Positions 1 to 64,000 of a stretch of DNA of 64,000 nt are shown here, piece by piece (the stretch's first letter is position 1; every line of letters begins with the position of its first letter). This stretch comes from Marsupella aquatica (taxonomy: Eukaryota > Plantae > Marchantiophyta). A model generated the notes under the pieces. It was given only the letters and a program-made list of their open reading frames with translations. It was not told the DNA's origin and did not search any database. Where the stretch lies: positions 11,882,828 through 11,946,827 of the forward strand of contig OZ316894.1 in assembly GCA_973895155.1 (NCBI GenBank). The letters are read 5' to 3'. A program made the translations under genes and the position numbers.

Positions 1-1693
1 TATCTCTTCGCCCTCCTCCAAAAAAGTGAGATGTCAATCTTCTCACCCAACTTTGGTGGCCAAATCTGTTTGAAAAAACGAGATTTCACTCTCGTTTGGA
101 AATCTTCAAAGTCCTCCTCTATGTCAAGGATCAGCGATGGCTTTGTCTTCTCAGACGAAGTAAGGATCCTTGCATCTGGAACAGTTGGGATCAACTCTGA
201 AATAATCTCAGACATGAGCGAAGAACAAATTGACTCAACCTGCTCCCAAACAGCCCATCAGTGAAGCCAAAGTTTTGTTTCGCTGTCCGAGAATTGACCA
301 GGGTGGAAGTACTTCTTGCGAAGCTCAGGTCTGCATTGTGCCTCGAGGAGTACACATCTGAGCTGGGGAGTCAACGATGAGACACCCGTAAATAGCCTCG
401 CACGATCGAGACCACATGACACATTACCCCTTCCTTTATCGTCTGTTCGTTGGGCCTCCTTCCTCTCATGTTCGCAGTAGTTGTGCATCTCAACACACTT
501 CTGGAAAAAGTCACCAAACTCAGGATTTAGGAGAGGTCCAATCTTTGGCACCTTCACATTCCAATCTGCCAGTTGCTCCTTCATCATGTCTTTGACTGCC
601 ATGTCTTGCGCAGCTTTTGAAAGAGGTTCTCCTTGCGCTTCTTTCAACTGAAACTTCTTCTTCAAATCTTCCGTCTGCGCTGCAATATTAGCAGTAGACA
701 GAATGTACGTGCAGGCATCGAGTGTCATGTTCTTCGAATACCAAGCCGGTTTCCTGATATTTGCCATCTTCTGCTGGAAAAGTTTGTAGTTGTCTGCATC
801 GATGATATCTTTGTATACAGAAAGGTCATTACTGAGAACCTTGTGGACTCTCTCTGCTTCAAGGACCCAAGAATTCTCAACGTGACATTGAGTCAACCTG
901 AGCAAAAGAAACAGGTCAGCGAGATCGCTAACAAGAGGAAATGAAAGAATTTTATATACAATTCACAGCTTGAAGGAAAAGAAACAAACCTATTCAGTGC
1001 ATGCATTGCCGACTCAATCTGCACGAATGAGTTCTTGTCACCCTTGAAAATTCGACAAACAACTCGAGGATGATATTTGACATCATGGGGATTCTCGTCC
1101 GCAAGCTGCATCCATGAGTACAGACGATGATTTCCATCGAAAACACAGAACATTTTGTCTTTCAAAATTTTGAAAGCTTCGTGAGAATCACATTCCCTCT
1201 CGAATTCTTCATTCTGAAGAATCCACATGTCATCCCACGACTCCCGAATCACATCCTCGCACATCTGGACAAGGCCATCTTCGCCGGTCATTTGGACATA
1301 AAATCGAGGCGCATCTTCGATGTATCCCTGCGTCCGGAATTCATTCTTGAGTGTCTCGATCGCAGTCGAGTTAGTTTGTAAGGACCGAACGATCTGCATG
1401 TTTCGCATTCTACAAAGGGGAATCCTCGGAGGAGCGAGCGGGAATCCAAATTTGTCATTTCCAAAAGGGAAAAGATGGCGATTGATGACAACAGAATAGG
1501 GTTCTGAAGCTCCAAGTTGAAACGTAGGATTCACAACATCTACTTGGTTCACCATCTTGGGCCTCCTCGGTGTTTTCAATCCCGCCTGGAGCGCCTTCTT
1601 GTTCACTGTAGACCTGGTCTCCCTTCGGCTTGACTCGACTGACTTGAACGATCCTATTGATGACAAGCTCTCGGGTGAAGACAATGGCTCCAT
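1..1693 (-). pseudogene. ParB/Srx-domain protein (element A), spliced, truncated by the window edge, one in-frame stop
   Basis: Exon 1 is 1693-990, with the ParB/Srx-like motif VFDGNHRLYSW. A GT-AG intron spans 989-898 (AATAG|GTTTGT...CTCAG|GTTG, giving NRLTQ). Exon 2 runs from 897. TGA at 258-260 interrupts WLH*WAVWEQVE, which aligns to WCHTWQTWNSVE in element B. The frame continues to RRAKRY at base 1, matching KRAKRY in B. Confidence 0.8.
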
Positions 1694-2368
1694 CAGGGGG
1701 TCCGTGAAGTGATAAGGGTATCAACAGGTCAAGGTCGAGGGCAACACGCTTTGCGAACATAAAAACACCCGAGAATCGATCTTCCAATCAAAGACATAAT
1801 CGTACCCTCGTCTGTTGCTTTCACCTGAATGCTGCGCCCGGTCGTGAAAAGAGATACAAATATTCTGTACGACTCTTCTCGCAATCATTTTTCAGACAAC
1901 GTCAGGTATACATGTACTTCCGGAAATACGAACCACCGAACTCACGACTGAAAGAAAAGTATCTAATGACAATGAGATAGGTGTCCAGTACTATACCGTA
2001 CCGTTGACATGTAGGTACCCGTTGACCAATTCCAACGGATATAAACGGTCACAATGGTCTCTTATGAGGAAATGTTTTTGCTAGCGACATCGCTAGCCAA
2101 AAAATGACCACTAAATACATTAACTCCTGAAGGGTGTTTTGTAAGGATTTGAACAATTTTACTTGGTTCATTGAGCTAGCGAGATCGCTAGCTTTATCAT
2201 TCCGCAAATAGAGTCATATAAGACAAAATAACGGTCAGATAACGGGAATAAGAGGCATTTATTAAATAAATACGTTGAGTCCAACACCTACACAAGCACC
2301 TTTCCTCATATGTATTTGGAGAAAGAAGAGAGCGAAGTATCTCACATTGTGGATTGCTGTAGACTGTA
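1694..2368. promoter_or_regulatory. Bidirectional promoter region of element A
   Basis: Lies between the divergent ATGs. Contains 2 palindromes and 6 AACGG/CCGTT (MYB/MSA-like) cores. Confidence 0.5.
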
Positions 2369-5300
2369 ATGTCCAAAACTTCCAGCATGTCTTCATTGGG
2401 ATCGAAGGTTGTGATCGAGAGAAAGACGACGGGTGATGTTGTTGTTCTGGATGTTCCGGAGAATACTATTATCTCTGTCAAGGAGTCTTTTCTCTCATCG
2501 AGGTTTGGGCTTTTGAAAGATGATTTCATCTGGAAGTTGTTCGTTCTTTACTCTCGGGATGGATCCAGAAGTCACGAGGTGTCGGATAATGGTTCAGGAA
2601 TATTGCCAGAAAGAGCTTGGGACCTAAAGGGTGGTTCAGATGTAGAGCTAGTCTCATGTAAGGATGACATTGCACATATCAATGTTTCCGATCCAGAATC
2701 CCCGACTCGACCGTCACCTGCAGTACCAGAAATTATTGACATCTCCCCTGAGAGTGTGGGTAGGGATGTCTCTTCTGTGTCGACAAAGTCTTCTGAGAAA
2801 TCCGTTTTTGAAGCAGTGAGTCAAAACGAGTTTCAATCTCAGCCAGTTCTTTATCGAGTTAGTGCATATGATGCCTTTCTCAATATTACTGGGTCAAGCG
2901 AGTTGGCAAATTTCCGCAGGGGAAACGATTGGAAGGAGATTCAAGTGCAGACTTTGCCCACTTCATACAACGGAAACTGCGTTTTTGAGCTTCCTCCGGT
3001 GGAAGGTCAATTTCGTCGAGGATATGGTCTTCAGGACATGGATAGGGATAATGACGGCTATCCATGGACGAGACTTCTCACAACTTCAGCTAATCTCAAA
3101 CCTCGCAATCACTGGTCTGTGTCAAAAGTCAGATGTGTCGGTGTACTTGAATGCCAAAATCTGGTCTGTAGAAAGTTGAAGCACACCGGTTCAAAAAATG
3201 ACTCTTCCTTCCGAGGAAAGGGACAATTTACTGAGCCGTTTCATCTTGGTGAGCTTGTGGAGGAAGGAGGGTTGGTGTGCGGATTCTGTGAGGAGAGGCC
3301 TCTCTGCATCCGTGAATGTCCGGCTAAGCTTTTGTACGTCTATCCTAAGCCGTCTCTTGAGTCAAATGTTGCGAAACATATGTCTCGATTGGCTGTTCAC
3401 ATGGGTTTCCATGACCACGTTGTTTGGAAGGGGAAATCTCGATTGGCAAAAAAGCAGGCGGAGGAGATAGTTTCTGGTGTTCATAAAGCGAATCCCGTGT
3501 GTACGCCAGGGCGTGTTCTTAACAAGTCTATAGGAAACCTGGTTTCTCTTTTGCATCCAGAGTCTTCTTCAGAACTATCAAAAGAAGAAGAGAGAGAGAT
3601 TTGGGAATCAATGAAGGTTGTGTCCACTGTTGAGAAATTCCAGGCCATATTCCGGAGCGTGAAAATGGATAACCCAAAAAAGGGTGAGTTGGATTCTCTT
3701 TGTGAGATGCAAGCATGGAATAATTTTCCTTACGTTCAGAGGTACCTTTTCCCTGGGCAGGGGAGCAAGACCGATAGGGCTCATATCTTCAAAATGAGTA
3801 CAAATGGCCCAGGTTATGGTGTCGATATTCTCAGGCAGATGAAGGCCATTTTTGTGGAAGTGAAACCCCCGAGAGGGTGGCTGACTTTCAGCGCCCATGT
3901 GTACGACCATAATTACAGGTCCCTTTGTACCATCTTCACTTGTGAGCTCCGTGCGGAGGACTCCTTATCTCTTGAAACCGCATGGAGATATATGATTGAA
4001 GTTGCCTCTGATCATGATGTGCATGACCCACTCATTGGAGGATTTATTGCCGATAATGCCGAGGCTGGATGGATCGCCATTCGAAATGTTTTTTTTGGAG
4101 GTGTCCGTCACCCACAGAAGGAGCATAGTGACGCCTTTCACTTTGCTCAATCTCTTCGTCGTCACACATTGGAGGGTATTCGGGAAGATCGCCATCGAGA
4201 GCACTATAAACTGTGGGAAAGGCTGAGAACAGCACCAACATATGTTCAGGCCTACCGTGTTGCTGACGAAATCCATCGTTGGTGGAAGGAAGGAAATTGC
4301 TATGCTGGGAAATTGAAGTCTCTCCAAGGATGGTTATCTTGGTGGGTCGTGAGGTGGAGGCAGTGGGGGAACTTCATCCGCGTTGTAAGTGTCCAATTTC
4401 ATTTATCTTTGACGTCATTGTTTTTGCTAGCGACCTCGCTAGCATATCAGGTCTGACTGGGGACTACTTTTTCGCAGACGCAAACCGCAATGGAGTCAGC
4501 CTTGATGCCAAATTGTACTGGAGCGGAATCAGTCCATGCATCCATGAGATCCTGCCAAATGAAGAAACTAGTGGGATTGATTGAAGCATGTGAGGTGGAC
4601 CAGAATCATGCTGCGGGGCAAATTGCTGCTTTTACTGCCTACAGTGAAGGTGTTCACAGAGGCCAGGGGCCGACCATTTTTGAATTAGCATATAGGAACG
4701 CCGATGCTATGGGATCCATGGATGCTTACGAAAAGGCAGCAAATCTTTTGCTTGAGTCTTCAGCTAAGTATGAATTCTATAGAACAGTTCCATTACATGG
4801 CGATCTCCGAACAACATCCACGAAGAGGAAAGGGAAAGCTTCAGCTGTAATCCACGAGAATGACTCCCACAGACATGACACGGTGTCACGCACAACAGCT
4901 TCTCCTTCAGGACTAAAAAGGCGTAATCTCTATCCTGAATTTCGCTTTGTCAATGTTTCGCAGACTTCTGCGGACCCAGAAGTAGCAAATAATACAACTT
5001 CGGCAACACCTGTCGGAGGTTGTTCTGCTGGAGTTATCCATATTTCAGATGATGATGGTGATGATGCAAGTCGTAATGTCAATGATACCATGAAGATGGG
5101 GACTCAACCTCAGTGTGATGTCGGGGATGACCATCGGGATGCCCCCCAAAGGATCCCTTCCATCCGAGAGGTTGATGTTTCTTATGGGACCTGGCATCTC
5201 AGGCGGAGCGGTAGAGGTGCTGGACCTGTTTGCAACGGGTCGGTTGACCGAAGCGTTTTTGGAAGAGATGAATGTAGAAATCTCATCAAGGAGACTGGAT

Positions 5301-6054
5301 GTAAGTCCGCACAAGGGGGAATTGTTGGAGTCGCCATTCACGGGTTGCGATTATCGTCTCCACATCGCCAGTTGTTGTACTTTTGTCCTAATAATAAGTG
5401 TCACAAGAGCCGAGGACGCAGAACTCTAGCTCAACTACCCCCCCCCCACCCAAGTCGCTCAAGGTTCAGCGTGGGACTTGCCTCTCCCATCCCGAGATAG
5501 AGTTTCTGCTGGGATTAGGATTCCAGATCAGTGGACTCTCCTATGTGGATGCAAATCAAGTTGGAGAGTTCCCGTCCCCCAATCGGGTCAACCTACGAAT
5601 TGATGTTAACTCATTCCCCGAACGAATTGATCTAACTAATGTGGACCGTCGGTTGAAAACCCGAAATGGTAAGGGTGCAAGACAGCGTTTCAGCAATACT
5701 CCAGAGTTGCTCAAGCGCATCGTTTCCGCTACACAAGAATACATGAGAGTTGTCGGAAATGAGAAGGTAACTACCGGAAATGGATGGGGTTGGAGATACT
5801 TGATCGCCACTCACGAGACTGATTCACAAGTTCCGCACACATATTGGGTGCAAATCTGTTGTTTCCCTTCGTGTTCTTGTGAAGACTTTTATAAGAGGCA
5901 TACACGAGGGAAACCATACATGTCTTGTAAACATCTGCTGTGGGTGTATTTAAACAAGTTTTCACTCAACCTAGAGAAGGATGACCTTGTCAAACAGCCA
6001 ATTCTGACTGTTGGGGAAGTGAGGAGTTTAATTCCGTTACAGATAGGGGACTAG
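2369..6054 (+). pseudogene. GCM-like Zn finger + Mutator-type DDE + SWIM transposase (element A), disrupted
   Basis: Exon 1 is 2369-4384, the intron is 4385-4477 (GTAAGT...TTCGCAG) and exon 2 starts at 4478. GCM-like C/H pattern: KVRCVGVLECQNLVC...CGFC...CPAK...HMGFHDH. DDE motifs: FIADNAEA, DAFHF, GAESVHASM. SWIM: CSCEDF...CKHLLW. The segment matching FDVMKR (first catalytic Asp in B) is missing near 3840-3880, and there is a frameshift in the poly-C run near 5438-5450. Confidence 0.8.
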
Positions 6055-6677
6055 TCGTTTATTGGAGATGCTAATTATAGGGTGGTGGGATGGATTACTC
6101 GAGTTTGTGGTTTCACAAATATCAATTTGTTTTCACCGAGTGAATCATAATGTTAGCGAGGTCCATAATGGTAACTTTTATGGTGTTTGAGTTTTCTGTT
6201 TACGTTTAGCGATCTCTCTAGTCTTAGGAAGTCTGCTACATCCTGACAGAAACATCCTACTTTCAGACGTGTCAACCTATCGACAAGTTTCTATAGAGTT
6301 CACGGTTTGATCATTAAAATGACGCCAGTTTTTGGCTAGCGAGATCGCTAGTCTGATCAACGGAATTTAGGACAGGATGTGACAGGATGTTTAGGGTTTA
6401 GGGAGGGAAGTTTCCCCTGAAGTTGTTGTGGTAATACTCGATCGAATTGATTTTCAAAGATGAACACAGTTCTATACTAGCGATATCGCTAGTCTGGGAA
6501 AGGTCCAACAGTGACTTCAAAATAAAAGTACTATGTGCGAAATGGCATTCCAGAGAAACACATAGAAATGAAAGGACCACCCAAACTTTACTTCTCATAC
6601 ATATTGAAAGTACATGAGGACATGCGGTTCGCTTGTAACTACAAAAATTTCAGTAAATCCACAACCTGACTCTACTC

Positions 6678-7106
6678 TCAGGGGCTGGACGCCTTCCATG
6701 CATCGGAGTCAGTGTCTGACTCAGAATCGTAATCCGAAGAGGCGAGGCATTCCTCGGTCCAGTAGTCATAGATCTCCCTGTCAATCCAATACTGATCCTC
6801 TTCTGCGAGCCTCTTCCTCTTCGATACAACCTCGCGCTGTGTGGTATCCACCTTTGGCTTCGGTGGAGACTTTGCTGCTGGAATTAACTTTGGAGGAGTA
6901 GGTGTTCTCCTCAATGATGATGACGATCCAACAGATTGACCAAGTTCGGTTTGGACACTGCTGCCTGAGGAGACCTTCATAGTCTCTGCATCGGGTTTCT
7001 GCTTCGGAGGAGAGTCATCTTCAAGCGGGCCATCTGTCGCCGGGTTGTAACAACGGATCTCAAGTCGCCATTTCCCCTGAGGAGGATTGCTTGGAACACC
7101 AGACAT
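6678..7106 (-). CDS. Small acidic/Ser-Pro-rich ORF inside element A, convergent on the transposase; probably has an upstream exon
   Basis: 142-aa ORF with a KRKR NLS-like run and an acidic tail. A CTGCAG acceptor lies just upstream (~7111) and a CAG|GTAAGC donor at ~7254. No recognisable domain. Confidence 0.35.
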   Translation of the reverse strand: MSGVPSNPPQGKWRLEIRCYNPATDGPLEDDSPPKQKPDAETMKVSSGSSVQTELGQSVGSSSSLRRTPTPPKLIPAAKSPPKPKVDTTQREVVSKRKRLAEEDQYWIDREIYDYWTEECLASSDYDSESDTDSDAWKASSP

Positions 7107-8685
7107 TTCTCTGCAGTTACGAAACCCAAACAGTGATTAAAGAGAACAGGATTCAACAAATGGAAACATTATCCACGATGTAATACGATGAATATCATGC
7201 CTTGTCGGAGAGTTCTTCCCTTAAAACAGCTCAGAGAATAGACCCGCGCTTACCTGAACTAGATCTGGAGAGTGTTGAGAACTTGGAACACTGATAGCAG
7301 TTCCGAATGAAAGAGATGAAGTCGGACGCGGTGGAAGTGATTGGGCGAATGATTTGGAAGACTGGTGGTTTTGGGCTAGCGGATTTGTTTAAGTGGACGG
7401 TTCGACGCCTTGGATTTGAGTCTGGTTCGAACGGTAAGTGTCTCGTTCACTTGCAAGTGACTTAATTAGTTTCCAAACGGCCTTAATCCTCCTTTCCTCG
7501 GTAGTAATGACACGTTGATTCTTTCCACGCGGGAATCGCGAAGTACTTTTTTGTTATTACTCTTCCTCGGGTGGGAATTTTCACATGTGGAAGCCTGTAC
7601 GTGGAGACCGTACCTCGTATGATTGGCTCAATGTGTTGGCATCATTAGACTAGCGATTTCGCTGGCCTGAAGATATGTCATTTTGATCTATTGCGTTCAC
7701 GGGACTAGAATCGTCCATGGGTAGCCGTCTATATTTATTGATCGAACAGGGTCTCCATGCTAGCGAGGAATATTCCAGACCTTTTTTGGGCCCCAATACA
7801 AGGTGACATCTTGCCCGTGCGAGCAAAAATTCTACTGTTTGCTCGCACGTTACAATTACCCGTGACAGATTATGCAGCTAGTGGTCTGTACAAAGGTGCG
7901 CGGACCGGAAAGTCACGGGAAGAATTTGGCAAACCATGGGACACAGAATTTCCCTCATTCCGATCGGATTCCACTGTTTGTTCATGGGGGTTGGGGATTG
8001 GGTCGGACCGAACCAGCAGCGGGGTCACATGAGGAAGCTGCACTCGTCGATTGCAATGAATGTGGTGGGAGTCCAGCAGGTTTGTCGGGTATAGCGACGG
8101 AGACAGCAAACAGGCAAACAGGAAATACTTTTCCTGTTTGCCTTATGCTGTTACCAGGAAAAAACATCTTGTACCAGGGGAAAGAACACACAATCAGCAG
8201 TTTAGAATTGTTGAAGTTGGAGTTAGTCCATTGCGGTGAGGGAGGATACCTTGTAATGAATTGCTGAACCACATAATAATTGAACCTTATATCCCAACAC
8301 AAACAAGGGGGAGCATACATAAAAATGTCAAGGAATGCGCACAAAATGGTAGGTCCCACCACAATCGGCAACAAAATATATGAAAATAATACAAAATCAA
8401 CGCAGCCCAAAACTTTATGTCATTATGTGGTCCAAAATAAAAGCGAACAACGGATTGACTAGCGCCTGGCGCTATCTTATCGTTATTCAAGGAAACAAAT
8501 AGTTGGCGTTGAGAACATAAATCACAACACAATGACATTTAACTGTGTAGCCTAGACAAAAAATTTACCAGCGCCTGGCGCTAACAAAACATGATGCGAC
8601 ATCAATAACACTATACCGTTGACATACGACAAAATCAATATAACCGTTTGGACCAATAATACAACCTACATCATCATGATTCATG

Positions 8686-11600
8686 CTATAAACGATGAGC
8701 ATTTTGCCTCTCTAATATGAGCCGAACCTCTCCAACAGTGAGAATTGGTTGGCTGGTCAATGTAGATTCCTCAACGTCTAGTTTGAAAACGGTAAGGAAA
8801 ATCCAATACAAATGTTTGCAAGGCATATATGGATGTTTCCGGGAATGTCGCCGGTAGAAATCCTCACACGAGCAAGTGGGGAAAATGCAAATTTGAACAA
8901 AGTAACAATTTGGCGTCCGCATATTTTCGTGCGTTTGCACCTTAAACTGTTTTCCCCATGCATTCCCAATCGCAACATCCCACTCTCCCTGAATGTACAT
9001 CGTCTGTTTTTTTGTAGACGCAATTCTGTTCATGTGACCCTGGGTAAGATTTGACCGAGGAACCGTATTCCTCCCATTCCGGCTTCGGAGACGAACATTG
9101 GGTTCGAGAAGATTCACATGTTCTGGAAAGATATTGACATTGATTCGAAGATCAAAATCTGACGGGGGTCTAGTTGTAAGTTCATTTCCGCGCACTAGGG
9201 AGATTCCGTTGTCAAGAAGATATTGCAGCTCGTCCTCCGAAACATTTGTCCATTTCAAAATGGGAAGAACATCAGGGAAAGGGGGAAAATTCAAGACACC
9301 TCGACGCAGGCGGCTTTTGTAACATGTATTGTTTGGGCAAAACCAAATCATTTCGGTTATGGGTTCCCCCCTGAAAATCCGTTGACCTTTGACAACAATT
9401 CCGATAACACCATGTGGTGAGGGAAATCCAACTTTTTTCACGCGATTGCGACACTCATCTCTTTCAGAATTACGGGAAAATGATCCGTTGCACTGAGGAC
9501 CAGCGCCAAATTTTGAAGTTCGACGTAATTGCCATGCAGCTAGAGCAACCTCCGTCTCACGGACAGGACACTCTTGTAACGGTTGCTGAAGCACGGAGGG
9601 AGCAGTCTGGGGAAGCCTCGTTGAACGCGTTCGGTCTTGAGCAGGAGGGGTATTGAAATCGACATCTTCTCCACCGCCCAATATGTCACTTCCAGACAGA
9701 TTAACAACAGGATCAACTTGAGGCGTGGGGCCAGGGATAGCATCAAACGCCATGCGATTAAGATTCTTCCTTTTCATCGATCTAGTATTGGGCGAGGTGA
9801 CAAGGATTTTATCATGCCTATGGGAGTCTTGTGGCGAGATATTCCCAGATGCATGTCCTTTCCTCTTCAAAGACTTGGTGACAACGTCTCCATTGAGAGG
9901 TGCACGTCTCTCCAAGTCAAACTCGGCAGCGTTGGACAGTAGCATATTCATTGCGTCTTCATACAACTTGGGGGAGCCTGCTTGGTCCGCTGATCGGAAA
10001 GTGAGTTCCCAAATTGTGGGACCTTTTCCTCTATGCAACCCTTTCCGATACGCAGTGTAAGCAGCAACCTGAGAAATAGCTCGATTTTGGTCCATTTCAC
10101 ATGCCTCAAAGAGCCCAACCTTTTTCTTCATTACCCATGCTTTCATACCTGCGTGCATGGACTCTGATCCTGTACAATTAGGAATCTTAGCCCCTTCTTC
10201 GACACTCTTGTTCTGCAATCACATAGAATAAAGTGTCTGTTATAGAACAAGAAAACACTAGCGTCGGGCGCTAGTGAAGTGGACTCTGTCCCTAGAAGTC
10301 AAAACTGGCACTATACATTAAGGGACAACTTATTTCGTCCTATTGTGTCATATGACAGTTTGAATAAATAATAGCGCCAGGCGCTAGTATTAAAGGATGC
10401 TATGGTATTGTAATATTTGAATATGGATACAAACATTTTGAAATGAGAATATAGCACTGCAATACCTAAAGAGCGGAAAGCAAAGTAAACTAACTTACCA
10501 AACGAATAAAATTTCCCCATTGTCTCCACCTGACGACCCACCATGAAATCCAACTCTGGAGCATCCGGAGCTTCCTGGGGACACAGTTACCCGACTGCCA
10601 CCACAAATCAATCTCCCTTGAAATTCTGTAAGCCTCTACAAATGTGGGGGCATTTCGCATCTTATCCCAAAGCCTACGATGCTCTGCTTGACTATCTTCA
10701 ATCACTCCTTCAATCGAATGGCGATGGAAGGCTTGGTAGAAATGGAATGCGTCAGTTCGCTCACGCTCTGGGTTTGGATGCCCTCCAAAAAAGACATTTC
10801 GGACTGCCAGCCAACTAGCTTGAGCATTGTCCGCCATGAATCCATGAATAATCGGATTTTCTAATCCATTCTCTTTGGACACCTCAATCATTAGTCTCCA
10901 AGCCTTCTCGAACGACTCTGTATCCTCTGCTTTTAGTTCGCAGGTGAATAAGGTACACAGAGCGCGATAGTTGTGATCATAAATATGCGCACTAAAAGTA
11001 ACCCAGTCTTTTGTAAGCCGTTTCATCACATCAAAACTTACCCAAGCACCTTTGAGACTTCCACCAGGTTGCATTTGTCTCAAAATATCGACGCCTGATC
11101 CATGGCCGATCGAAGTCATCTTGAATATGTGAGGACGGTCTTCTTGAGATCCTTGACCTGGTAGGAGGTACCTTTGGAGGAAAGGCATGTTGATATTTCT
11201 TTGATACCGAACAAGAAAATCTAGTTCACCTCGACCTTTCTGGTCCTGTCTAACACTACGAAAGAGGGACGCAAACTTCTGGGGTGTGGAAACTACCATG
11301 AGAGACTCAAATATCTCTGTTTCTTCAATATCTTGAATATCTTCCATACTTTCACACAAGGACTTTACAAAGGACCCTGTCGCCACATTTTTTACACCAG
11401 CAGGGGTGAAAATTGGATTTCCTTCCAATTTCTTTTTGATAACCTCCTCAACAATCTTCTCTGCGCTCTGAGAAAACACCTTTCTTGAAGGATGGTTGTG
11501 GATCCCCATATGAATTGCCAAGCGGGACATGTGAGTACAGGTTTCTGAGTCAACTAGAACCTGGGGGTACATGTAAAATAACCTTGCTGGACAGGATTGG

Positions 11601-12505
11601 ACACAAAACGGAACTTGATCACAAAATTGGCAAACAACTCCACCTTCGTCAATGAAGGAGCCAACACGATGTTGCCCGCCAAGTTTGGGGGTTCCACCCC
11701 AGGCCTTCTGGTTCCTCCTTTTCTTCCACTGAAAATAGTCGCAAGTATTATTCCTACACTCAATGGAACCAGTGCACGTTACTTTACCAAATTCCCAATA
11801 TTTCTTGGGATGAACATTAGCTGATGTAGGAAATATTCTGGTCCAGATGTAGCAATCCTTTGACCGGTCCATGTCGCGTAGACGTGACCCCTTCGAAAGA
11901 GCTGTCGTCGCAGGAGGCAACTCGAATACAATATTTCCATTGTATTTCTTTGGCAAACAGTCAACTTGTTCATGGAAGAAGTCCCTAGCCGCGATGAACC
12001 TCAAGATTTCACTGGAACCAGTTGACTTGAGAATGGTATCCATTGCACTTCTCCGATACACAATGGAATTTTTGGTAAAAACTGCTGTAACCTCTTGTTT
12101 AACAGGGGTAACCTCCTGTTTAACAACGGTGTGAGGGGATTTAGCACTACGCTCAGGCAAAGCAGGTCCATCATCGTCGCTATCTGAAAGCAGGACAACA
12201 TCAACAAAGGGTTTGGATGAAGATGGGAGATCGGATGCGACTGGTTTTTGAATGACAATAGAATACCGAATTCCTGCATTCAGGTGCCAAAAACGAATCC
12301 CGTCATCAACATCAAAAGAAGCAGTGAAATTAGACGCTTCATCTCCATTTCCCTCCTCCAAAATGTCCTCAATGTCGTTCAAATCCAAACCAAAGCGCCC
12401 ACAGAGATAATTCTCACTAACTTGCTTGTATACGTCATTGGCCGACAATGGAATGGATACAAGGTCACCGGTAGACGGACGCGTCAGAACGATTGACCTC
12501 GACAT
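8686..12505 (-). CDS. Apparently intact GCM-like/Mutator-type DDE/SWIM transposase (~1177 aa, 2 exons)
   Basis: Exon 1 is 12505-10499 (an alternative start lies at 12571). The intron is 10498-10213 (TTG|GTAAGT...TTGCAG|AAC) and exon 2 is 10212-8686. The candidate triad is D (VSFDVMKR), D (FMADNAQA) and E (GSESMHAGMK), with a D-x2-H motif (TDAFH). GCM-like: VTCTGSIECRNNTC...CQFC...CPAR...HMGIHNHP. SWIM: CSCEDF...PCKHLYW. Confidence 0.85.
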
Positions 12506-13465
12506 TTTAAGATCATCCAACCCAAAAACACTCAATTCACGATAATGAATGACGTCTTCGAATGTACACAATGGTATTCATAGTGAATAATCCATTTGTC
12601 AGAGCCGTTATAATACGACAGAAACACTACCGGTCAAAAGCACATCTGACACAATAAATGTTTTTTGTCATTATGTCAACGACATTTACACTAATGAGCC
12701 TAAGATGTCCGTTTCCAAAGAGCATAATCATGATAATTAAATCATGTTAATTGAGTAGCGCCCGGCGCTACTCAAACATCCTACCTTCAACATGGACCCA
12801 AAATGGTGAAATATATGAGTAGCGCCAGGCGCTACTCAAACACACACCGTAAATTATGGTATAAAACTGGAATGTTTTATCCGGGGTTTCAGAATAAATA
12901 CTAAATGTTTGTAGCTAATTTTTTTAATATTATCTAAAATATTACCAAAATGTGCCCATTTAATATTAGCGCCGGGCGCTAATCCAAAACGGTAATCATG
13001 ACATTCATTTATGGAAAAATATTCAAAAATTGTATTCATTTGGCTTTTTATTGTATACTTGAGGGTGAATGTTGACCTAACTTTGGGAAATTTTATGGTT
13101 TAAATTGTGATGATTTTGAGTAGCGCCTGGCGCTACTATTGACCAATATCAGATTTGAACTAGGAATATATATTAAATTCAACGAACTGTTCTTTAACGG
13201 TCATATTCAACGGTAACGTTAGGTCGCGTAACGTCGAAGATATGCCAACGGTATTCGAACAACTAATCCAGAATTGACAAGTGGCGCTCAAGAGATAGAT
13301 ATCAAAGTAGCAAGGGGATAGTTTAGAGATGATACTCTCCCCCCCTCCCTTGTCCACTGTATTTAGGTTCCGTTTCGGAGGTTCTTCGTGCAAGAATTCT
13401 CTAGAAGAAGTACGGTACAAATGAGGTACTCATCACGATCGTGAAGCACTTCGTGTCTGAGAAAC
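12506..13465. promoter_or_regulatory. Bidirectional promoter region of element B
   Basis: Lies between the divergent ATGs. AT-rich, with 4 palindromes and an AACGG cluster at 13196-13251. Confidence 0.5.
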
Positions 13466-16400
13466 ATGGACCTTCTCCCCACTACCTCGCATGGGTATAG
13501 TGTTAACGGGCAGGGAGAGCAGATCCATTCGCAGACATCCGAGTGCTCGTTTTCTAGATCTGTTTACAGTCGTCGAGTGACACGGTCTACAGCATCCCAA
13601 GCTCCCGAAACAGTCTCTGTAGTCACATTTCCGAAGAGCAGGAGAGCGAAGATGGACGATCTCGACACATATGCTGTGGAAGATCGAGGAGAAATGTCGC
13701 TGACGATGTCCGACGTTATCTCCAAGCATGTTATGGTGTTTGGCAAAGATTTTCGAGGGCACGACAAAGACCCCCCAAGGATTCCAATGTGCCGCTTGGT
13801 TCACATGGAAGTTGTCCGCACCTTACAGAAGGGAAGTCCTTCAATTGAAAAGTTGAAGGACTCTTTTCGTAGCACAGGATACAACTCAAAAATCGGAATG
13901 TTGTTCTATGTCCAGCCGACAGATTCGAATGGGAATGTCCAGACGTGTACTCCAGAAATTCGAGCTTCCTGGGACCCGATGTGGGTGGCCGAGAACGAGA
14001 AGTTTGAAGCTGAATGTGCGGCCGATCCAGACTTCATGGTGTTACAAGATAAGATGTTTTACGTTTTTTACGGTAACCATCAACTTTACGCATGGTCGAT
14101 CGTTACGAAAGAAAATCCGGAAGATATCAAGTATCACCCGCGTGTGCAATGTACTATCTTCAAGGGTGAAAAGGGATCTTTGATTGAGATTGAGGCGGCT
14201 ATGCATACTGTGAACCAGTAAGTCTCTCGTTGAATTTCACTTATCCTTATCTTTTATAGTGTAGTTTTTACTAGCGCCTGGCGCTATTGACTGACAAATT
14301 CTTCTGTAGACTTGGACAGGCCGTGGTGAAACCTTCCTGGATACTTGATGCAGACCGAATTAAGAGGATTTTGTCCAACGATCTAGAATACTACAAATCA
14401 ATCATCAATGGGGCAAACTTCAAGAAGTTTGGGCAGGTGATGCAGAAGACTCGAAAAGGATCGTGGTATTCCAAGAAAATGCCTCAAGAAGCACTTCTGT
14501 ATATCTTATGCAAGAATAAGATTAAATCCTATTCTCGACAATTCAAGATGGACATGGAGTCGGCTACCGCTCAGGGAAATCCTTGGTCTCAGGAAGAGAC
14601 ATCCAAACGACATGCGGTCATGATGAAAGAAGCAATGAAGGATTGAGCAATCAAGGTCTCAAAGATCACTCCCTTGTTGAGTCCAGAGTTTGAAGACTTC
14701 ATGACAACCTGTGCTGAGATGTATCCGATGACCGAGGTGAACAAACGCGAGAAGAAACCGGATGCGGTTGTCTGTACCATGGATCGTGCCAGGTTATTTA
14801 CAGCAGTCTCCGCACTCGACCCCAAATTGAGGAGCACTTTGTTAGTAGCGCATTGCACGCCAGAGCTCAGGAAGCAGTTCTTTCATCCACAAAGTGTTAG
14901 TGATGACCCTGTGAAGCAGTGGTGCCACACTTGGCAAACTTGGAATAGCGTGGAGGGAATTGCTATTGGTATGCTGCAGACTGCCCTCCAGCAAATCAGT
15001 GAAATAATTCCTTCCAATCGATTGGAGGAATGGAAGTGTGAGTCTTATGATTCACTCGTTGAAATAGTGTGCAATGATTTCAAAAAATTTGGGGATGCAG
15101 TGAAAGGTAAGTTTTTCAATACGATGTGGATGTCCAAGTACCCAGACAAGGAAGACTACACACTCAAGAATCAAAAGCGAGCGAAACGATATGTCTATCG
15201 TTTCTTCATGCACATGGAGATTGTGAAGCCTGACTGTTTTTGGGCTTACCCAGCCGCTTTCCAGAATTGGGTCATCTGCGCAGATGGAGACATTTTGGCC
15301 GAACTGTATTCGATGTATCCGGCTGAGGGTATACTTCCACCGAGGAAATTGTCAGAGTGGGAGAGAATTCACTGCCCTTGGTATCTTGACACCGACAGAT
15401 GGGATTCTCCTTTTGACGACACTAAGAAGGATGCTTTCCATAAACTGTCTAAATCCCAAGTTCCGAGACAATTTGTCTCCGACATGAAGGAAGGAATTGA
15501 GGGGGAAGTCAACTCGTCGACGACTGAGTTGCAAAAAAAATGCGAAACCACAGTGGTTCATGTTGATCGAAGCCGAAAACCAAGAGCCAAAGCCAAGGCG
15601 GATGCCCCTGTGGCAAGTGCTAGTGCCAAGTCTGGGAAAAAACGTAAGCTACACCTCCTTTTTCCGACTTCCTTCTTTGTTTTCTGTGCTTGACACCATT
15701 TTGGGTAGGTGGTCGAAAATCTGATGCCGCCACGGATGACACAAAAGTCGATGCAACACCAGAAGTCTCTGAGGCCAACACTGGTGCCAATCCAGACCCC
15801 ATCACCCCTGTTGAGAAGGGGAAGGTTATAGTTCCTGTGGATGCTACAAGCACAAAGAAGAAGAAGAAAAGGACCGTCGATGTCTGGGAATCTTCTCGAG
15901 ATAATGCTTCTGGGGCCGGTATCCAACGGGATGTGGGGACTTTCAAGACCAAACTCGGAAGACACTGTATGGTTGAATCAAGCTTGGCAGAATTTATTGA
16001 TAGTGCATTTAGTAAGGAAGAGAAGCCAGATTGGGTTTCAGACGCTGAGAAGTGGGGTAAGGATTTGATCAAATCGGGGTGTAGAGATAAAGGAATCATT
16101 CGAGGTGGGAAGGAACGATCATTTGGGGTGAATGCGGGTTTCATCTATCTCCCAACTGGTTTGAAACCCACAATTGTTGACCGTCGGGTCCCGAAATGGA
16201 ATGTCACAGATCACACAACAGCCGAATCATTCTTTCAGGCGATGGACCCTTTCCTTTCCGATGACGGAATGCTTGCTATCTTATACTCGGATGACCACGA
16301 TCAGATTTCCCAGGTCATTTCTGCATGTCAGCAATCCAAGAAGTTCATGTGCATCAATACGCACAACGTTTTCATGTCTGTCCCAATGTACAGATCCAAG

Positions 16401-17525
16401 ACAGATGTCCAGGTAAATATTCTCTCTCAGTATAGCTATACTAGCGCCCGGCGCTACTCTTTATTTCTTAGGAGGTCTTCTCTCATGAGTAAAAGATTTT
16501 TGAAATCCAGTTGGTTCGTCAACTTTTGCAGGTCTTCACTCTTAGACTGGACATATTTTGTCGAGTTTCTTTTAAAGGAAAGGTCCCAAAGGATCCAAGA
16601 TTCAAGCCATTATCTAGCGCTGAAGATCCTTCAATCTCGAACCTTATTGGGCTACAATCTTTGAAGGAAGATCATTGTCCTGAACTCCATTTTACTGGAA
16701 TTCCCGACTGCCGGTTGGTTTTATGCAAACTGTCCTTGAACTCTTTACAATACCTAAGGATATTGTAATTGATTGGACCGTCGGCTCAGGTAGTACGTTC
16801 ATTGCTGGGGATTACTCGGGCCGTTTTGTCATCGGGTTAGAAAATCGTCGGGAGTTTGTTGAGACCGCTTCGAGGATTTTTTTGGACCTCATTTCTCCAA
16901 AACCTTTGGAGACACAACCTCCCCCTCCTCAAATAACCGGACGAAAAAAGAAAGATAGACTTAGATCTGTCCTCAACTTTGATTCGGACGAAGATGATGG
17001 GACGCCAGAAGATGATGTTCCTGAGGATGTCAATGACGGCGGGAAAGAGAAAACCCGACATGATGGGTCAACGGAGGACAGTGAAGAGTCTTCCGAGTAA
17101 TTTTCGTCTCTCGTAAGCTCCTTTATCCTTTCAATTGTTGGCTAATCTTCAATTCCGCCAGTTCTATCGGTTAAGTACTTACTTCCTCTTTCTCTTCTAC
17201 TTCTCTTTTGAGCAGGTCAGAATGGAACCAAAGAAAATGGTTTCAACTCCGGAGGAAAGTGGCTCGAAATGTAATCATCACTCCCGAGAAGCCGTTTGTA
17301 TTGCCATCATACGCTGAGAACGTCGCGAGGAAGGTAGAGAAATTTAGAACTCTCTTCTGGGAAACAAAAGGACTTAGGCTTCTTAGGGGAGTAGACAGGA
17401 AGTTCATGAGGAACCCCTACGTAGATGATGTTTCTAGAAGCAAGTATATTGATGATGAGGCAGAGTCGACCGACAGATCTCATAGCTCCCAGAATGAGAG
17501 CTCAGAATCTGACTCTGAAGGGTAG
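13466..17525 (+). pseudogene. ParB/Srx domain + helical region + beta-class N6A/N4C DNA-methyltransferase-like fusion (5 exons), one stop and one frameshift
   Basis: Exons are 13466-14217, 14310-15643, 15709-16412, 16532-17096 and 17216-17525, joined by phase-compatible GT-AG introns. The ParB motif is VFYGNHQLYAW (FDGNHR in A). MTase motif X/I region: RLPVGFMQTVLELFTIPKDIVIDWTVGSGSTFIAGDYSGRFVIGLE. Motif IV-VI-like: GFIYLPTG...FLSDDGMLAILY. TGA at 14644-14646 replaces the Trp seen in A, and there is a frameshift near 16690. Confidence 0.75.
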
Positions 17526-20500
17526 CAATTTTCTCCTCTCTCAGGTCAAACTTCCTCCCAATTGTACGAGTATGCCCTTGGTTTTTGTTAGCGCCGGGCG
17601 CTATTGAATTTATTAAAAATGAATTGAGTTTTAGGGATGTTGCCCCTTCCTTTCAATGGTTAATGTGGTCTTGAGTACTGTCCTTTGTGTGGGTTCCTCG
17701 GCTTGGTTAATTGGCGCCCGCCGCTACCCAAAAAACACGTCGGAAGCTTCCGTTTGTTATTTGTCATTTCCGCCCTAGTGTCATTTGGCTTTCACTTGAA
17801 GACTGGTACCGACAAGAGGACCTGTAACGATAAATCCAAGCCCCTTATTGACATACTATTGTTTCTTTCAAAGTCCATTTCTCTCATTTTTCTCCTTCTC
17901 GATTCCATGGAAGGCCAATTTATCGACGGCCCACGAGAGCATATGTCAACTTCCGATTAGATGGTTTCCACCAAGATCCAGATTGTCAGGACTCTAGGAT
18001 TGATGATGAATGTCACTCTTCGAGATAGGACATTGTACGAGGAGGCACCCACCGGGAGTGTTAGCGCCTGGCGCTAGTTACAATTGTTCTGGAAACTTTA
18101 GTGTTCCTAAGTAGAAATATTTGTACACCGAGGACAATATGTTTCACTTAAATAAAAAATCTCGGGTTTCTTTTCTTTCAATTTCCCTTTAGAAGTTATG
18201 ACTCAGATACCTTGGTTAAGTCCTACTTCTGTGCTTTGATATTGAACTTAGACTATTATTAATGTTTGGTTTCTACTTGGATCTCAGCCTGAACATCAAT
18301 CCTAGGTTCTCGTGATTTTCTGCACAAAGAATTGGAAGCGGCCGGCTCTAGTATTCGGCATGTTTGGGCGATTAATGTGTCATTATTTTGGGTTTGAACG
18401 CCCGGCGCTAGTATTCGGCATGATGCGTTTGTGATTATTTTTCCTGTAGACTCCCGGCGCTAATATTCGGCATCGCATAATTATCAGTATTTTAGGAACG
18501 GATTTTTTTAATTTTGTCACAATACCAGGAGAAATGTGCTCCCAAAACAGGAAATTTTGCTGTTACCAGTTCCTGTTATATTTTGCTGTTTGCTGTTTAC
18601 TGCCTTTTGTAAACACCTCGGTTTGTCTCAGAGATACATGGAGTGGGAGAGGCAGAGCAAGATTATAGGTGGGCATGAAAAACAGCAGGATTCTAGGAAC
18701 TTTGGAAAGATTTCCATCCATTCTCATTCTCCCATAGAGGAAGTGATTCAGGGTGCCAATGTTTTGAAAAATACCAGGGCATCCAGCCAACCTGCCTCAC
18801 CTCAACTCTCTTCTTCACCGAGACTGTCCTCACCCAAGCTTAATGATGGCTCAAAGTGGCTGCGTGCTGTCTCCAGTCAAGCAAACACAGCAAATTTCAA
18901 GCAAGTTCATACACAGTAATCGAAGCATGTACTCCTTAATTAGTTTAGACGGGCCACGGAAAGATCTACCTCTTGTTGTACATGCCTGGGTAGAAGAAAA
19001 TCTCCAAAAATGCTTAAGCTAATTGAAACAATGACTGATGTTGAGGTCTAACATTCCTAGGCCCAATGAACAAAGGTGAGGCTGGAGGGTGATGATAGAT
19101 CCATACATATGATCCACTGGTTTGCTACTGTTTTTGCTGTGATAAACTTGGGATTGCGCCAATGCAAAACCATCAGGAAATGAACGATGGCCTCCTGCGA
19201 CAAGTTTAACCTGCGGCAAGTATAAGTGCTTGAATGCCATCGAGAAATTAATTGTGCTTCCAGGATCGACAATTCTTGGAGGGCAAAGAGTTTTGAATGT
19301 CTGCTCTGCATATGAACTACGTTGTCGAGCCCAAATCTGGCAAGTGCTTTAATCCAGCCAGTCATGTGAGTGAGCGTAATCCCCTGAGCTGTGATGGGAG
19401 TTGCAACCGGTCGATGTGCCACCCAAATTAAAAGCATTTCAAATTGGTGAACGTAGGATTCAAAAGCTTGTAGGATTCAAAATCTTCACAGGATTCAAAA
19501 GCTTCAATTGCGGGATTCAAAAGGCCAAGATCATTGCAATGCTCCTCCCTTGGCGCCAGTCCTCTCTGAGAAAGCTTTCATGCATTGGGTATCCGTATCG
19601 TACGTGCCGTTTCTTTTCAAGACTGGCAAGAACGAACAGACTTTTCCTTACAGGCAACTACGATGCAACTAATCTCAACCGTATGTTCTGAGACTGGGTA
19701 GCCAAGCAAAGAATCGGGCAGGTGCCAACTAGAACCTTTTTGACAAAGGCTTAAGGGCCTCATTTGTGTTCAAAATGCTTCTAATGATAGACGTTCAAAG
19801 AGGAAGCAAAACATTGCTCCAGCCCAAGAGAAAATTGCCCAAACAAAAAAGATGACCAAAAACAAAACCAAGGTAAGACAAATAATTACTTACCTTGGTA
19901 CTCGCTGGCCATAATATATAGGGACTAAACACATGAATGACTTTATACCCCGCTTTATACTTATTTCAGCCTTACAATTGTAGGATTCATCTGAACAAGC
20001 AGAGGATGTTGATGCTCAACCAGGACCAACGGGAGGCAACGCTATCGATACTGAGGGTACTGCCCTTCCACCGAATGTGTCTACATGCAATCCCATCAGG
20101 AGAGGTGACTGCACTGGTAGGGGTGACCACACCTCCTTTAATTGATTTTGGTGGCTATGATTCATTGGTAAGATACGTGTGTTTGCTAATTGCTTTTATA
20201 TGTGAATTTGCAGGAGTACTAGAAACCACCTGATGTGCAACCAGACTCATATGCAAGTAGACGTTGGACTAAGTTGATAGTTCATGGGCCATTGCGCAAA
20301 GTGAATTTGTAATCCCGGGGTTTGTATCACAAGAGGTCATTGTGCAGGAGATTGACATTTTGGCTTCCTTGCACGCATCAAAAATCACCAAGACTGTAGC
20401 CAGGCTGATGTTAGCTCTTTCCACAAGGCAATTGATATAATCATGAGTAATGTGGATGAAAATTAGGGTACAATACAATTAGCAATATCTGACGGATAGT

Positions 20501-20844: not shown

Positions 20845-21530
20845 ATGGACAAAACCAAAACCTGTTCAACATAGAACGATATATGTGTGTTTTGCATACA
20901 ATATGCATGTTGTATTCACATTCCCCCCATCTTTACAACGAAGACACCCCCCTGCCGAAGCCTTCCCAAATGGACAAAACTTATCGTATTATAACACAGA
21001 AATATGATTTGTCATGTATACGCTTTGCACGTTGTATTCAGATTTTACACTTAGAATATTTTTTTTGTCCCTCTGACTTTACGAAGACACACCCCCGCCG
21101 AAGGCTGCCCAAATGGACAAAACCTTTTGTATTTCAACATAGAAATATGATTTGTCATGTATACACTTTGCACGCTGTATTTAGATTTCGCACTTAGAAA
21201 AAAACTTTGTTCCTCCAACTTTACGAAGACGCCCCCCGCCGAAGCCTGCCCAAATGGACAAAACCTATAATTGTATATTACACACATATATGATTTGTCA
21301 TGTATACACTTTGTACGTTGTATTCGGATTTCACACTTAGAAAAAAACTTTGTCCCTCCGACTTTACGAAGACTCCCCCCGCCGAAGCCTGCCCAAATAA
21401 TCAAAACCTTTTGTTATTACAACACAAAGATATGATTTGTCATGTGTACACTTTGCACGTTGTATTCGGATTTCACACTCAGAATTTTGTCCCTCCGATT
21501 TTACAAAAATGCCCCCCCCCCCCGCCAAAG
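20845..21530. repeat. Tandem repeat, ~143-bp unit, ~4.5 copies
   Basis: The unit TTACGAAGAC-CCCCCGCCGAAG-CTGCCCAAATGGACAAAACC...ATGATTTGTCATGTATACACTTTGCACGTTGTATT recurs at about 20935, 21079, 21221, 21364 and 21500. Confidence 0.9.
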
Positions 21531-39300: not shown

Positions 39301-39439
39301 TGAGAACTGGCATTGCTAATGAGTGATCTGACAAGACTAATGAAGTGGGGTCCCAAGCCGAGTATGTGCATGGTCTCCCAAATGTACAAGTGAGAGACAC
39401 GATCGAAGGCTTTCTCAAAATCTAGTTGCAGGAATAGCG
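36321..39439 (-). mobile_element. 5'-truncated L1-type LINE (RT + zf-RVT) with a 14-bp TSD, interrupted by a MITE
   Basis: RT motifs LDFEKAFDRVSH, RGVRQGCPLSPLLF, LFADD and YLGAP; CCHC motif CQICPSEMESIPHLFFKC. A T-run (minus-strand poly-A) lies at ~36322. TSD ATATGAATTTCCTA at 36307-36320 and 39440-39453. Confidence 0.9.
37690..38380. mobile_element. 691-bp non-autonomous TIR element (MITE) with an 8-bp TSD
   Basis: TIRs CCCTGGGCCCT.../...AGGGCCCAGGG; TSD AGCTCAGA at 37682-37689 and 38381-38388. Removing it restores the LINE frame RNFSGLSYTGSIWQAW. Confidence 0.92.
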
Positions 39440-40429
39440 ATATGAATTTCCTATTATTACTCCTAACATTTGAACTTCCTTAATTGTGACGAGTGGACCC
39501 TGTGGTGTGGTGGGGAAACTGGTGAATGAGACACATAAATAATGGTGAATGACTCACAAGGAGGTGAAATTTGTCACCTTTTTTTTCACTAGAAAATACT
39601 CTGATCTGGGGCACTTGTGACTTTTTTCACCAGAGCAAATTTGAGGGCCACTTCTTGTTTTGAACACAAACTCCAGATCTTAGAGCCAACTTGCATGTGA
39701 TCAACCCGGTGTTATGTGGCCCTCAAAATAACTGATGTCATGATATCCTTCAGTGAGATCTTCCTGTCTTAAGCCCCTCCTCAGGCAGGCCTCAGGGCAT
39801 CTCATGGGGAGAGCCACAGGTCTTGGAACTCCTATCTAGATACTCTACTTGTAACTTGTGTCTAAGTTTTGCCCAGAACTTCCGCTACTCACCTCAGCTG
39901 TCAGTTTTGCAGAGCACTAAATAGTAAAGATCTGCTTAGCAAGTCCTGTGCCTCGGGCAAGGCTGTTGCAAAGACTTGGTCAAAATATTAGCATTCCATT
40001 ACTTTGGATTACTTGGATAGAGGAAATCTATGAAAGAATAGTTACTGGAATATATGACTGTCATCAAACATGGCCAGAAGAGTTTGACATATTATTTCTT
40101 CACACTATGTCAATTGGGACTTGGAAATTTTGTGAGAAATTTAGTGAACCAAACAAATAGTGCAATGGACAAAAATCAGATATATTTCTTTGATTTAATG
40201 AAACTCCACAAACTAATGAACAATCATATCCAAATATCCATCTCAAATGACAAGCACAGAAAATCATTGCATCAAACCATTTCAGAAATTTTGTAGGGGG
40301 CCTGAATGACAAGAATCACACTGAGAACTAAGTATGTGGTTAGGTTAACTACTCGTAGATGCCTAGTTGTCCGTGGTATGCAAGGTAGCAAAGACTTCAT
40401 ATTCTCCCAAAAACATTAGTGGGGAATTT

Positions 40430-58020: not shown

Positions 58021-58066
58021 GGGAAAGGCATAATGATGGACCTTGCCACCCAGCACCCTCACCAAT

Positions 58067-63892: not shown

Positions 63893-64000
63893 AGTTGCAA
63901 AACTTGACTACTTTAACACTTAGCTCCAACATTGCTGACTCCGACGCCAAGCTCCCCTATGGTCTAGGCCCGGAATGGCCATCCGTGGAGGACTTAGCAT

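Follow-up and report, generated by a model that had tools for sequence, protein, structure and literature searches.

The Sola transposon Sola1-1_Ec32 of the brown alga Ectocarpus is reported to carry an accessory gene for a 1104-amino-acid (aa) protein with ParB-like and N4-cytosine/N6-adenine (N4C/N6A) methyltransferase parts, proposed to bind and modify its own element (PMC12477816); the portion of that paper available to us describes no target sites for the protein. In the red alga Bostrychia, Plavaka DNA transposons carry PAG3, a ParB-like accessory gene for which adjacent inverted repeats are proposed as sites, and such genes are also reported on Chondrus Mutator elements (10.1101/2025.02.11.637652). 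VANC sites are described as family-specific and located in introns and intergenic DNA (PMC5735166), and according to the algal study VANDAL alone among transposons is known to bind its own sequence and modify it (10.1101/2025.02.11.637652). ParB-plus-methylase accessory genes on algal transposons are known already from these reports, and self-binding has been proposed there. Here we analyse a stretch of 64,000 nucleotides (nt) from the liverwort Marsupella aquatica (contig OZ316894.1, positions 11,882,828 to 11,946,827; hereafter the window), in which a Mutator-like transposon with two genes, element B, lies beside a sister element, element A, and each contains a dispersed palindrome of its own. 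The locus adds a land-plant Mutator-like case with mapped ends, intron-dispersed sites and a pair of sister families whose sites differ in sequence but correspond in position. On balance, and with modest confidence, we favour the reading that the palindromes may be family-specific, parS-like loading sites of the element's own ParB-type protein and serve anti-silencing.

Palindromes of elements B and A

Palindrome B, TAGCGCC-N-GGCGCTA (15 bp; working consensus TAGCGYCNGRCGCTA), ranked first in the window when gapped palindromes were counted without a preset word. A search of the whole 64-kb window found 14 matches at up to two mismatches, all within 8460-18410, against 0.01 expected, and none of 100 shuffles reached 14. 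Ten copies are perfect, two have one mismatch (8569 and 10259) and two have two (17712 and 18396). Further degenerate copies at 18336 (three mismatches) and 18448 (four mismatches) bring the total to 16, which reproduces the initial annotation (about 16 copies, 12 of them perfect or single-mismatch and four degenerate). That annotation also described the copies as confined to non-coding DNA, including three introns, and as absent elsewhere in the window, and both points held. All 16 copies lie outside the exons of a model built from open reading frames (ORFs), GT-AG sites and homologue alignment, three of five modelled introns contain copies (two in the transposase intron, one each in accessory introns 1 and 3), and no match at up to two mismatches occurs in 1-7861 or 18620-64000. 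Exons make up 68% of element B, and the position of 12 of 12 sites outside them has p ~1e-6 under uniform placement. Four copies are found in the divergent promoter region between the two genes, and the largest gap between sites is 2.4 kb. The copies are as follows.

8460..8474: perfect, left end region
8569..8583: one mismatch
10259..10273: position-6 C>T variant, transposase intron
10372..10386: perfect, transposase intron
12756..12770: perfect, divergent promoter region
12820..12834: perfect, divergent promoter region, local duplicate of 12756
12967..12981: perfect, divergent promoter region
13121..13135: perfect, divergent promoter region
14272..14286: perfect, accessory intron 1 (14218-14309), 5' of a CTGAC branch-point-like word
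16442..16456: perfect, accessory intron 3 (16413-16531)
17589..17603: perfect, right end region
17712..17726: two mismatches
18062..18076: perfect
18336..18462: degenerate copies at 18336, 18396 and 18448, forming part of a short subterminal tandem repeat

Most copies have flanks unrelated to one another, as first described, and pure tandem duplication was rejected as their source on this ground. The description does not extend to all copies: 12756 and 12820 have 27 bp in common at 96%, and 18336, 18396 and 18448 have a common right flank and are spaced 60 and 52 bp apart, a pattern that identifies local duplication as the origin of some sites. Read from the sequence, each site contains CG twice and CNG once, and both are symmetric contexts of plant methylation. 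The earlier argument that the CpG-rich arms imply selection is weaker than stated, since the element as a whole is little CpG-depleted: observed/expected CpG is 0.76 in non-coding element B without the motifs and 0.77 in its exons, and 0.79-0.81 in elements A and B against 0.47 in the rest of the window.

Element A has a different palindrome, and its features are given here in the same form.

1..7861: element A, a paralogous two-gene element, left end beyond the window, right end inferred from likeness to the termini of B
917, 2082, 2177, 4428, 6207, 6337, 6478, 7651: palindrome A, TAGCGA-NN-TCGCTA, eight copies

Elements A and B have the same divergent layout, proteins that are 43-48% identical and introns at the same positions. 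The eight copies of palindrome A (0.08 expected) are all non-coding, and their places match those of palindrome B: accessory intron 1, the intergenic region, the transposase intron and the 3' region. Palindrome B (at up to one mismatch) occurs 12 times in B and not in A, and palindrome A eight times in A and not in B. A cross-search at up to two mismatches found neither site A in element B nor site B in element A, and neither palindrome occurs in the remaining 45 kb of the window. The outer arms TAGCG/CGCTA are common to the two sites, whose cores and spacing are different. At their ends, by comparison, A and B have the word AGCAAACAG in common, and because the terminal word is shared and the internal palindrome is family-specific, the sequences suggest two different readers for terminal repeat and internal palindromes. 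Imperfect palindromes of 34 bp (7816-7849) and 49 bp (8103-8151), built on AGCAAACAG, lie just inside the A and B ends and are candidate transposase sites.

Other copies of the element vary in a way that bears on how a site might be read. In the stretch 12700-13190, contigs of four runs differ 36 times at 35 positions, 30 of which are outside sites, two at site centres and three at site position 6 or 10, a count in which diverged flanks fall out of the 80% alignment. Each of the three variants at position 6 or 10 reads TAGCGTCGGGCGCTA on one of the two strands, as copy 10259 does, and this is the commonest site variant in other copies. The promoter sites vary at no position besides the centre and positions 6 and 10, and the change is always to a single sequence read on either strand, a pattern that a protein reading both strands symmetrically would produce. 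Depth in run X2 climbs at each site of this stretch, one contig of organism C, 577 nt long, matches it at two sites alone, and in run X6 contigs have the site with flanks that are unrelated, 19-26 nt away from the donor of the transposase intron.

Element B and its two genes

Public-run contigs were aligned to 7000-19500 and four runs were compared. Three of the four runs, from three studies, join 8078 directly to 18620, with 8 letters ambiguous at the joint; element B therefore spans 8087-18619, and an empty allele exists. The element, its target-site duplications (TSDs) and its transposase gene are laid out as follows.

8087..18619: element B, a multicopy DNA transposon of 10,533 bp, delimited by the empty-site joint and TSD and Mutator-like by TSD, termini and transposase motifs
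8079..8086 (+): left TSD, GGTTTGTC, from the empty-site joint and the sequence
18620..18627 (+): right TSD, GGTTTGTC, from the empty-site joint and the sequence
10499..12508 (-): transposase exon 1, an open frame with, by inspection, a Cys/His-rich WRKY-GCM1-like region, the first two acidic residues (FDVM, MADNA) and the DAFH motif
8686..10212 (-): transposase exon 2, an open frame with, by inspection, a putative catalytic E (GSESMH) and a C-terminal SWIM-like CxC...CxH
10213..10498 (-): transposase intron with two palindromes, from GT-AG ends and alignment; position and phase match the motif-A intron of element A

In run X2, summed contig depth is ~3,000-29,000 inside element B and 300-350 on the right flank, which shows many related copies of the element, as a depth that gives no copy number. 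The 8-bp TSD is inside the range of 8-11 bp reported for Mutator-like elements (MULEs; PMC6446971). The termini are G...C, with short imperfect inverted similarity and AGCAAACAG repeats at the ends, whereas MULEs have long terminal inverted repeats or, in the non-TIR kind, none. The long ORFs of the element are fully covered by the two genes in their divergent layout, and none of 15 ORFs scanned belongs to an ATPase family, as a ParA partner would. The transposase motifs (D, D, DAFH/DCFH, E and CxC...CxH) were assigned by inspection, from the match of the D-D-(D/C)xxH-E spacing to the MULE layout. MULE transposases are described as having a WRKY-GCM1-fold DNA-binding domain, DDE and SWIM architecture (PMC1702500). 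The GCM label given to the N-terminus in the initial annotation likewise comes from inspection; Pfam gave no match there, and the transposase as a whole has none in Pfam, PHROG or PDB. Four transposase homologues were found. A GCM1-type octamer is not enriched in the elements. Relatives of the transposase were found in 0 of 19 viral and 0 of 127 prokaryotic candidate stretches, nor was the paired motif found there, and a metagenome scan returned one locus of 1,749 bp, with the flanks absent. A prokaryotic origin of the locus was rejected in view of its spliceosomal introns and of the SHIPPO gene and retroelements nearby.

Element A and element B are separated by a spacer of ~225 bp (7862-8086). 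In the empty allele of B the spacer continues directly into 18620, so that the insertions of two related families lie almost at a single place. In the element A transposase ten residues are missing, the aspartate of FDVM among them, and the frame shifts near 5450, so that element A is also decayed. A 152-aa Ser/Pro/acidic open frame at 6678-7136 (-), in the right arm of A between the motif-A copies at 6478 and 7651, has no confident Pfam match and is possibly a third gene of that element.

The second gene of element B, on the opposite strand, is the accessory gene.

13464..14217 (+): accessory exon 1, ParB/sulfiredoxin (Srx)-fold domain by homologue model, start codon uncertain
14310..15643 (+): accessory exon 2, a helical region superposing on the ParB/Noc DNA-binding domain, a further helical domain and a Lys-rich linker
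15709..16412 (+): accessory exon 3, linker and N-terminal half of a beta-class methyltransferase-like domain, motif IV position non-canonical
16532..17096 (+): accessory exon 4, S-adenosylmethionine (SAM)-binding half of an N6_N4_Mtase-like domain, PF01555 E 1.6e-8
17216..17525 (+): probable last accessory exon, with an acidic tail; RNPYVDD is also in the Riccia homologue P0051

In this copy, exon 2 has a premature TGA (14644-14646) at a position that is W in 42 of 46 homologues, exon 4 is frameshifted near 16696, where other copies differ by one base in all four runs, and the family motif DGNHR of exon 1 reads YGNHQ (DGNH is conserved in 16-19 of 18-20 aligned rows). The accessory copy of element B is therefore dead.

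The accessory family has 110 representatives at E<=0.001. Of 14 homologues looked up, seven are named Riccia sorocarpa and one Calypogeia fissa, and spliced homologues occur in these two liverworts. Together with the SHIPPO-repeat gene of the window, these names would fit a plant whose sperm are flagellated. Database protein P0088 is a gene model in which a fragment of the transposase family (LPxxYNGNIVFELPP...MDR) is fused to the accessory helical domain, suggesting from its sequence that a further genome also has the two genes side by side.

The structure of the family was predicted from an alignment of 76 sequences with the Riccia homologue P0041 at its head, and 453 residues of the model reach a predicted local distance difference test score (pLDDT) >=90. 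Foldseek ranks 1-13 with this model were all ParB, Noc or sulfiredoxin chains. In a wide structure search of 48,161 chains the top four were all ParB/Srx-fold: KorB at Z 6.9 (root-mean-square deviation (rmsd) 2.9, 95 residues aligned), PadC at 6.8, pNOB8 ParB at 6.0 and sulfiredoxin at 5.6. Realignment placed model residues 146-306 on Caulobacter ParB at Z 8.0 (rmsd 2.8, 99 aligned). Alignments that include the DNA-binding domain, spanning model residues 150-517, were obtained with Myxococcus ParB (on 151-515; 193 of 195 residues, Z 7.7, rmsd 5.2) and Geobacillus Noc (199 of 199 residues, Z 7.2, rmsd 5.9), and Spo0J 118-198 aligned at Z 4.2 (rmsd 2.6, 81 aligned). What speaks more strongly for the predicted ParB fold is that many members of the family agree. 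For the ParB-like exon, a word search gave no longer homologues, a PDB sequence search no meaningful match, and plasmids matches of E 5-6 at best; exon 3 had no PDB sequence match.

The C-terminal tail resembles the methyltransferases DpnA, MboIIA, CcrM and PvuII, and its SAM-binding half matches PF01555 (E 1.6e-8) and DpnA (E 5e-5). Beta-class N4C/N6A methyltransferases have (D/N/S)PP(Y/F) as motif IV. At the corresponding position, set by alignment order and not by structure, the family reads DLPT (P0122, P0123, P0082), DMPS (P0051) or YLPT (element B), and none of the five covering sequences is canonical. The Marchantia N4-methylcytosine (4mC) methylases are reported to carry TSPPY, and the unlike motif here makes catalysis by the tail doubtful; it is probably a non-catalytic effector or reader.

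Candidate readers and functions of the palindromes

Proteins of the ParB family are loaded as dimers at short palindromic sites and begin to slide once they have bound cytidine triphosphate (CTP). We consider it likely that the ParB-type accessory protein and the palindrome form a pair. A dimer of the accessory protein, supplied by intact family copies, would sit on each TAGCGYCNGRCGCTA site, and its clamp would probably close and spread from sites no more than 2.4 kb apart until it coats the element. In element B, with its dead accessory gene, the sites would be served in trans. We infer CTP-gated sliding from ParB, Noc, KorB and VirB, the last of which is described as a ParB-family, CTP-dependent anti-silencer. 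The coated element would most likely be shielded from host silencing, and sites would accumulate wherever coding permits, in introns and intergenic DNA, because additions there spare coding sequence. Anti-silencing appears the likeliest benefit by analogy with VANC and VirB: the site logic of VANC is alike, VirB is both a ParB relative and an anti-silencer, and the sites contain symmetric methylation contexts. The weak CpG depletion of A and B fits this role. The parS- or operator-like character proposed in the initial annotation gains indirect support from the predicted ParB-type fold and from the palindrome swap in element A; the accompanying link between CCNGG and the methyltransferase found no support.

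The same protein-site pair could have another use, repressing or tuning the divergent promoter as KorB does, or joining the ends for transposition. The top fold match is indeed a repressor, KorB, reported to silence as a clamp at long range, four sites lie between the genes and eight less than 900 bp from the ends. The sites in three internal introns of B, and in the matching introns of A, would be superfluous for such a function, and the ends have the separate AGCAAACAG repeat common to A and B; we regard this use as unlikely. Slightly further down the scale we place binding of the palindromes by the WRKY-GCM1-like N-terminal domain of the transposase, as in AtMu1. Mutator transposases have DNA-binding domains of this fold (PMC1702500), and the AtMu1 transposase alone is reported to cause family-specific hypomethylation (10.64898/2026.08.24.746577). 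The transposase frames of element B are open and its accessory gene is broken, and the A and B transposases are as divergent as the A and B accessory proteins. AtMu1, however, is reported to bind terminal repeats (10.64898/2026.08.24.746577), whereas here the termini have a repeat of their own in common and the palindromes differ, and in algae ParB-like genes with inverted repeats are described alongside unrelated transposase types (10.1101/2025.02.11.637652).

The palindromes might otherwise act in RNA, as hairpins that signal splicing or processing, or be neutral by-products of local duplication. Short hairpins do fold, the two copies in the transposase intron pair together (z -3.84), the element A intron has z -2.61 and the other three -0.8 to -1.5, and some copies are local duplicates. 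Yet 12 of 16 copies are outside introns, two of five modelled introns have no copy, the distance to splice sites is not fixed (for which reason a splice signal was rejected), and the variants are symmetric across strands, one of them leaving a C-A mispair in the transcript. Neutral processes would not easily fix a different palindrome independently at the matching places in A, and both versions seem to us improbable. Least probable of all is methylation of the sites by an N4C/N6A methyltransferase encoded in the element, which would label the element as self at the CCNGG core first suggested as a possible target. The PF01555 match in the SAM-binding half, the likeness to DpnA, MboIIA, CcrM and PvuII, and the known Marchantia 4mC methylases with TSPPY speak for such an enzyme; its motif IV is DLPT, DMPS or YLPT instead of the canonical (D/N/S)PP(Y/F), and CCNGG is broken in the common variant TAGCGTCGGGCGCTA and missing from site A.

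Several observations weigh against loading sites of a ParB-type protein. The fold scores are moderate and ambiguous on the scale of the tool (Z <=8.0, 10-15% identity), and Foldseek returned no match to the P0041 model at E<=0.001 (best E 0.19). The modelled Riccia homologue is 22-34% identical to the exons of element B, and a two-sequence model of element B exon 1 alone had pLDDT 34. Sequence searches made no ParB call, with no Pfam match and a PHROG ParB-like match at E 0.12 for element A alone. The depletion of substitutions in the sites is not significant (3 of 56 non-central positions against 3.9 expected), and outer-arm positions were variable in 0 of 40 cases (p ~0.06). The CpG values may reflect nothing but youth. 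Two families were compared, and since their transposases and accessory proteins are equally diverged, the turnover of the site is not attributable to the accessory protein over the transposase. A Mutator transposase alone, finally, is reported to bind and activate its own family (AtMu1; 10.64898/2026.08.24.746577).

Loading sites of the ParB-type protein nevertheless remain our preferred reading, and a broader one may tentatively be added to it, which we hold to be possible but doubtful: a domesticated ParB CTP-clamp as a means of transposon self-recognition in land plants, with a family-own parS-like code in introns and promoters that co-evolves with the helix-turn-helix of the clamp, which would slide and tow a dead methyltransferase that blocks or reads host chromatin marks. 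Were this so, families A and B would provide two naturally occurring, mutually orthogonal sliding clamps that load at sites in a eukaryote.

Surroundings and comparison with known systems

The remainder of the window holds a 143-bp tandem repeat in four copies (20938-21520), a LINE (long interspersed nuclear element) remnant (RVT_1, zf-RVT; 36627-39479, -), and a long-terminal-repeat retroelement remnant (RNase H, integrase; 56529-58110, -). An open frame of 2,237 aa with SHIPPO (sperm-tail PG-rich) repeats (44082-50795, +; E 7.8e-228) is unusually long for the SHIPPO family. The segments 61900-61999 and 63901-64000 are inverted copies of each other over 100 nt or more, with 86% complementarity and 1.9 kb between them; the repeat extends past the window and is possibly a terminal-inverted-repeat element.

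The locus supplies what the algal proposal had not, namely candidate sites defined to the base and, next to each other, two related families with different sites. If the preferred reading is true, a bacterial CTP-gated clamp operates on eukaryotic chromatin, the arms race over transposon silencing has a second mechanism, and protein-site pairs of this kind would be candidate programmable tools for coating a locus; the homologues in Riccia sorocarpa and Calypogeia fissa are in liverworts close to a genetic model. A literature search that covered few subscription journals and, of the algal papers, no supplements showed no land-plant study linking palindromes scattered through introns to a ParB-like gene of a transposon.

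Sola1-1_Ec32, as described, and element B both have an accessory gene on the strand opposite the transposase, with a ParB-like N-terminus, an N4/N6 methyltransferase-like C-terminus and a similar length (1104 aa against 1207 aa in homologue P0122). The brown algal element has a Sola transposase, whereas ours is Mutator-like, with defined candidate sites and a non-canonical motif IV. PAG3 is likewise a ParB-like accessory gene that a DNA transposon carries close to inverted repeats as candidate sites, but it is described with a 2-oxoglutarate-oxygenase tail and tandem repeat arrays beside the gene, while our sites are single, dispersed element-wide and in introns too, with turnover between families. 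Like Arabidopsis VANDAL21/VANC21 and VANDAL6/VANC6, our case pairs a Mutator-like element with an accessory protein (PMC5735166, PMC10398659), and both have short, family-specific, partly locally duplicated motifs in intron, intergenic and terminal non-coding DNA (PMC5735166). The VANDAL motifs are reported as 8-9 nt, non-palindromic and in tandem arrays of the same orientation, unlike our dispersed palindromes (PMC5735166), and our accessory protein has a predicted ParB fold; anti-silencing has been shown for VANC and is inferred here.

With ParB/parS, Noc/NBS, KorB/OB and VirB, the system has in common the predicted two-domain fold and 13-16 bp palindromes scattered over the replicon. The KorB operator OB, TTTAGCGGCTAAA, has the TAGC/GCTA arms common to sites A and B, which, alongside KorB as the top fold match, may be coincidence. 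Unlike the bacterial family, our element has no ParA gene, and its accessory gene is a eukaryotic one with introns, whose product has long insertions, an extra helical domain and a methyltransferase-like tail, and is predicted to bind CTP and DNA. By the features tested, the element would work like VANDAL/VANC and like ParB/parS but is a member of neither.

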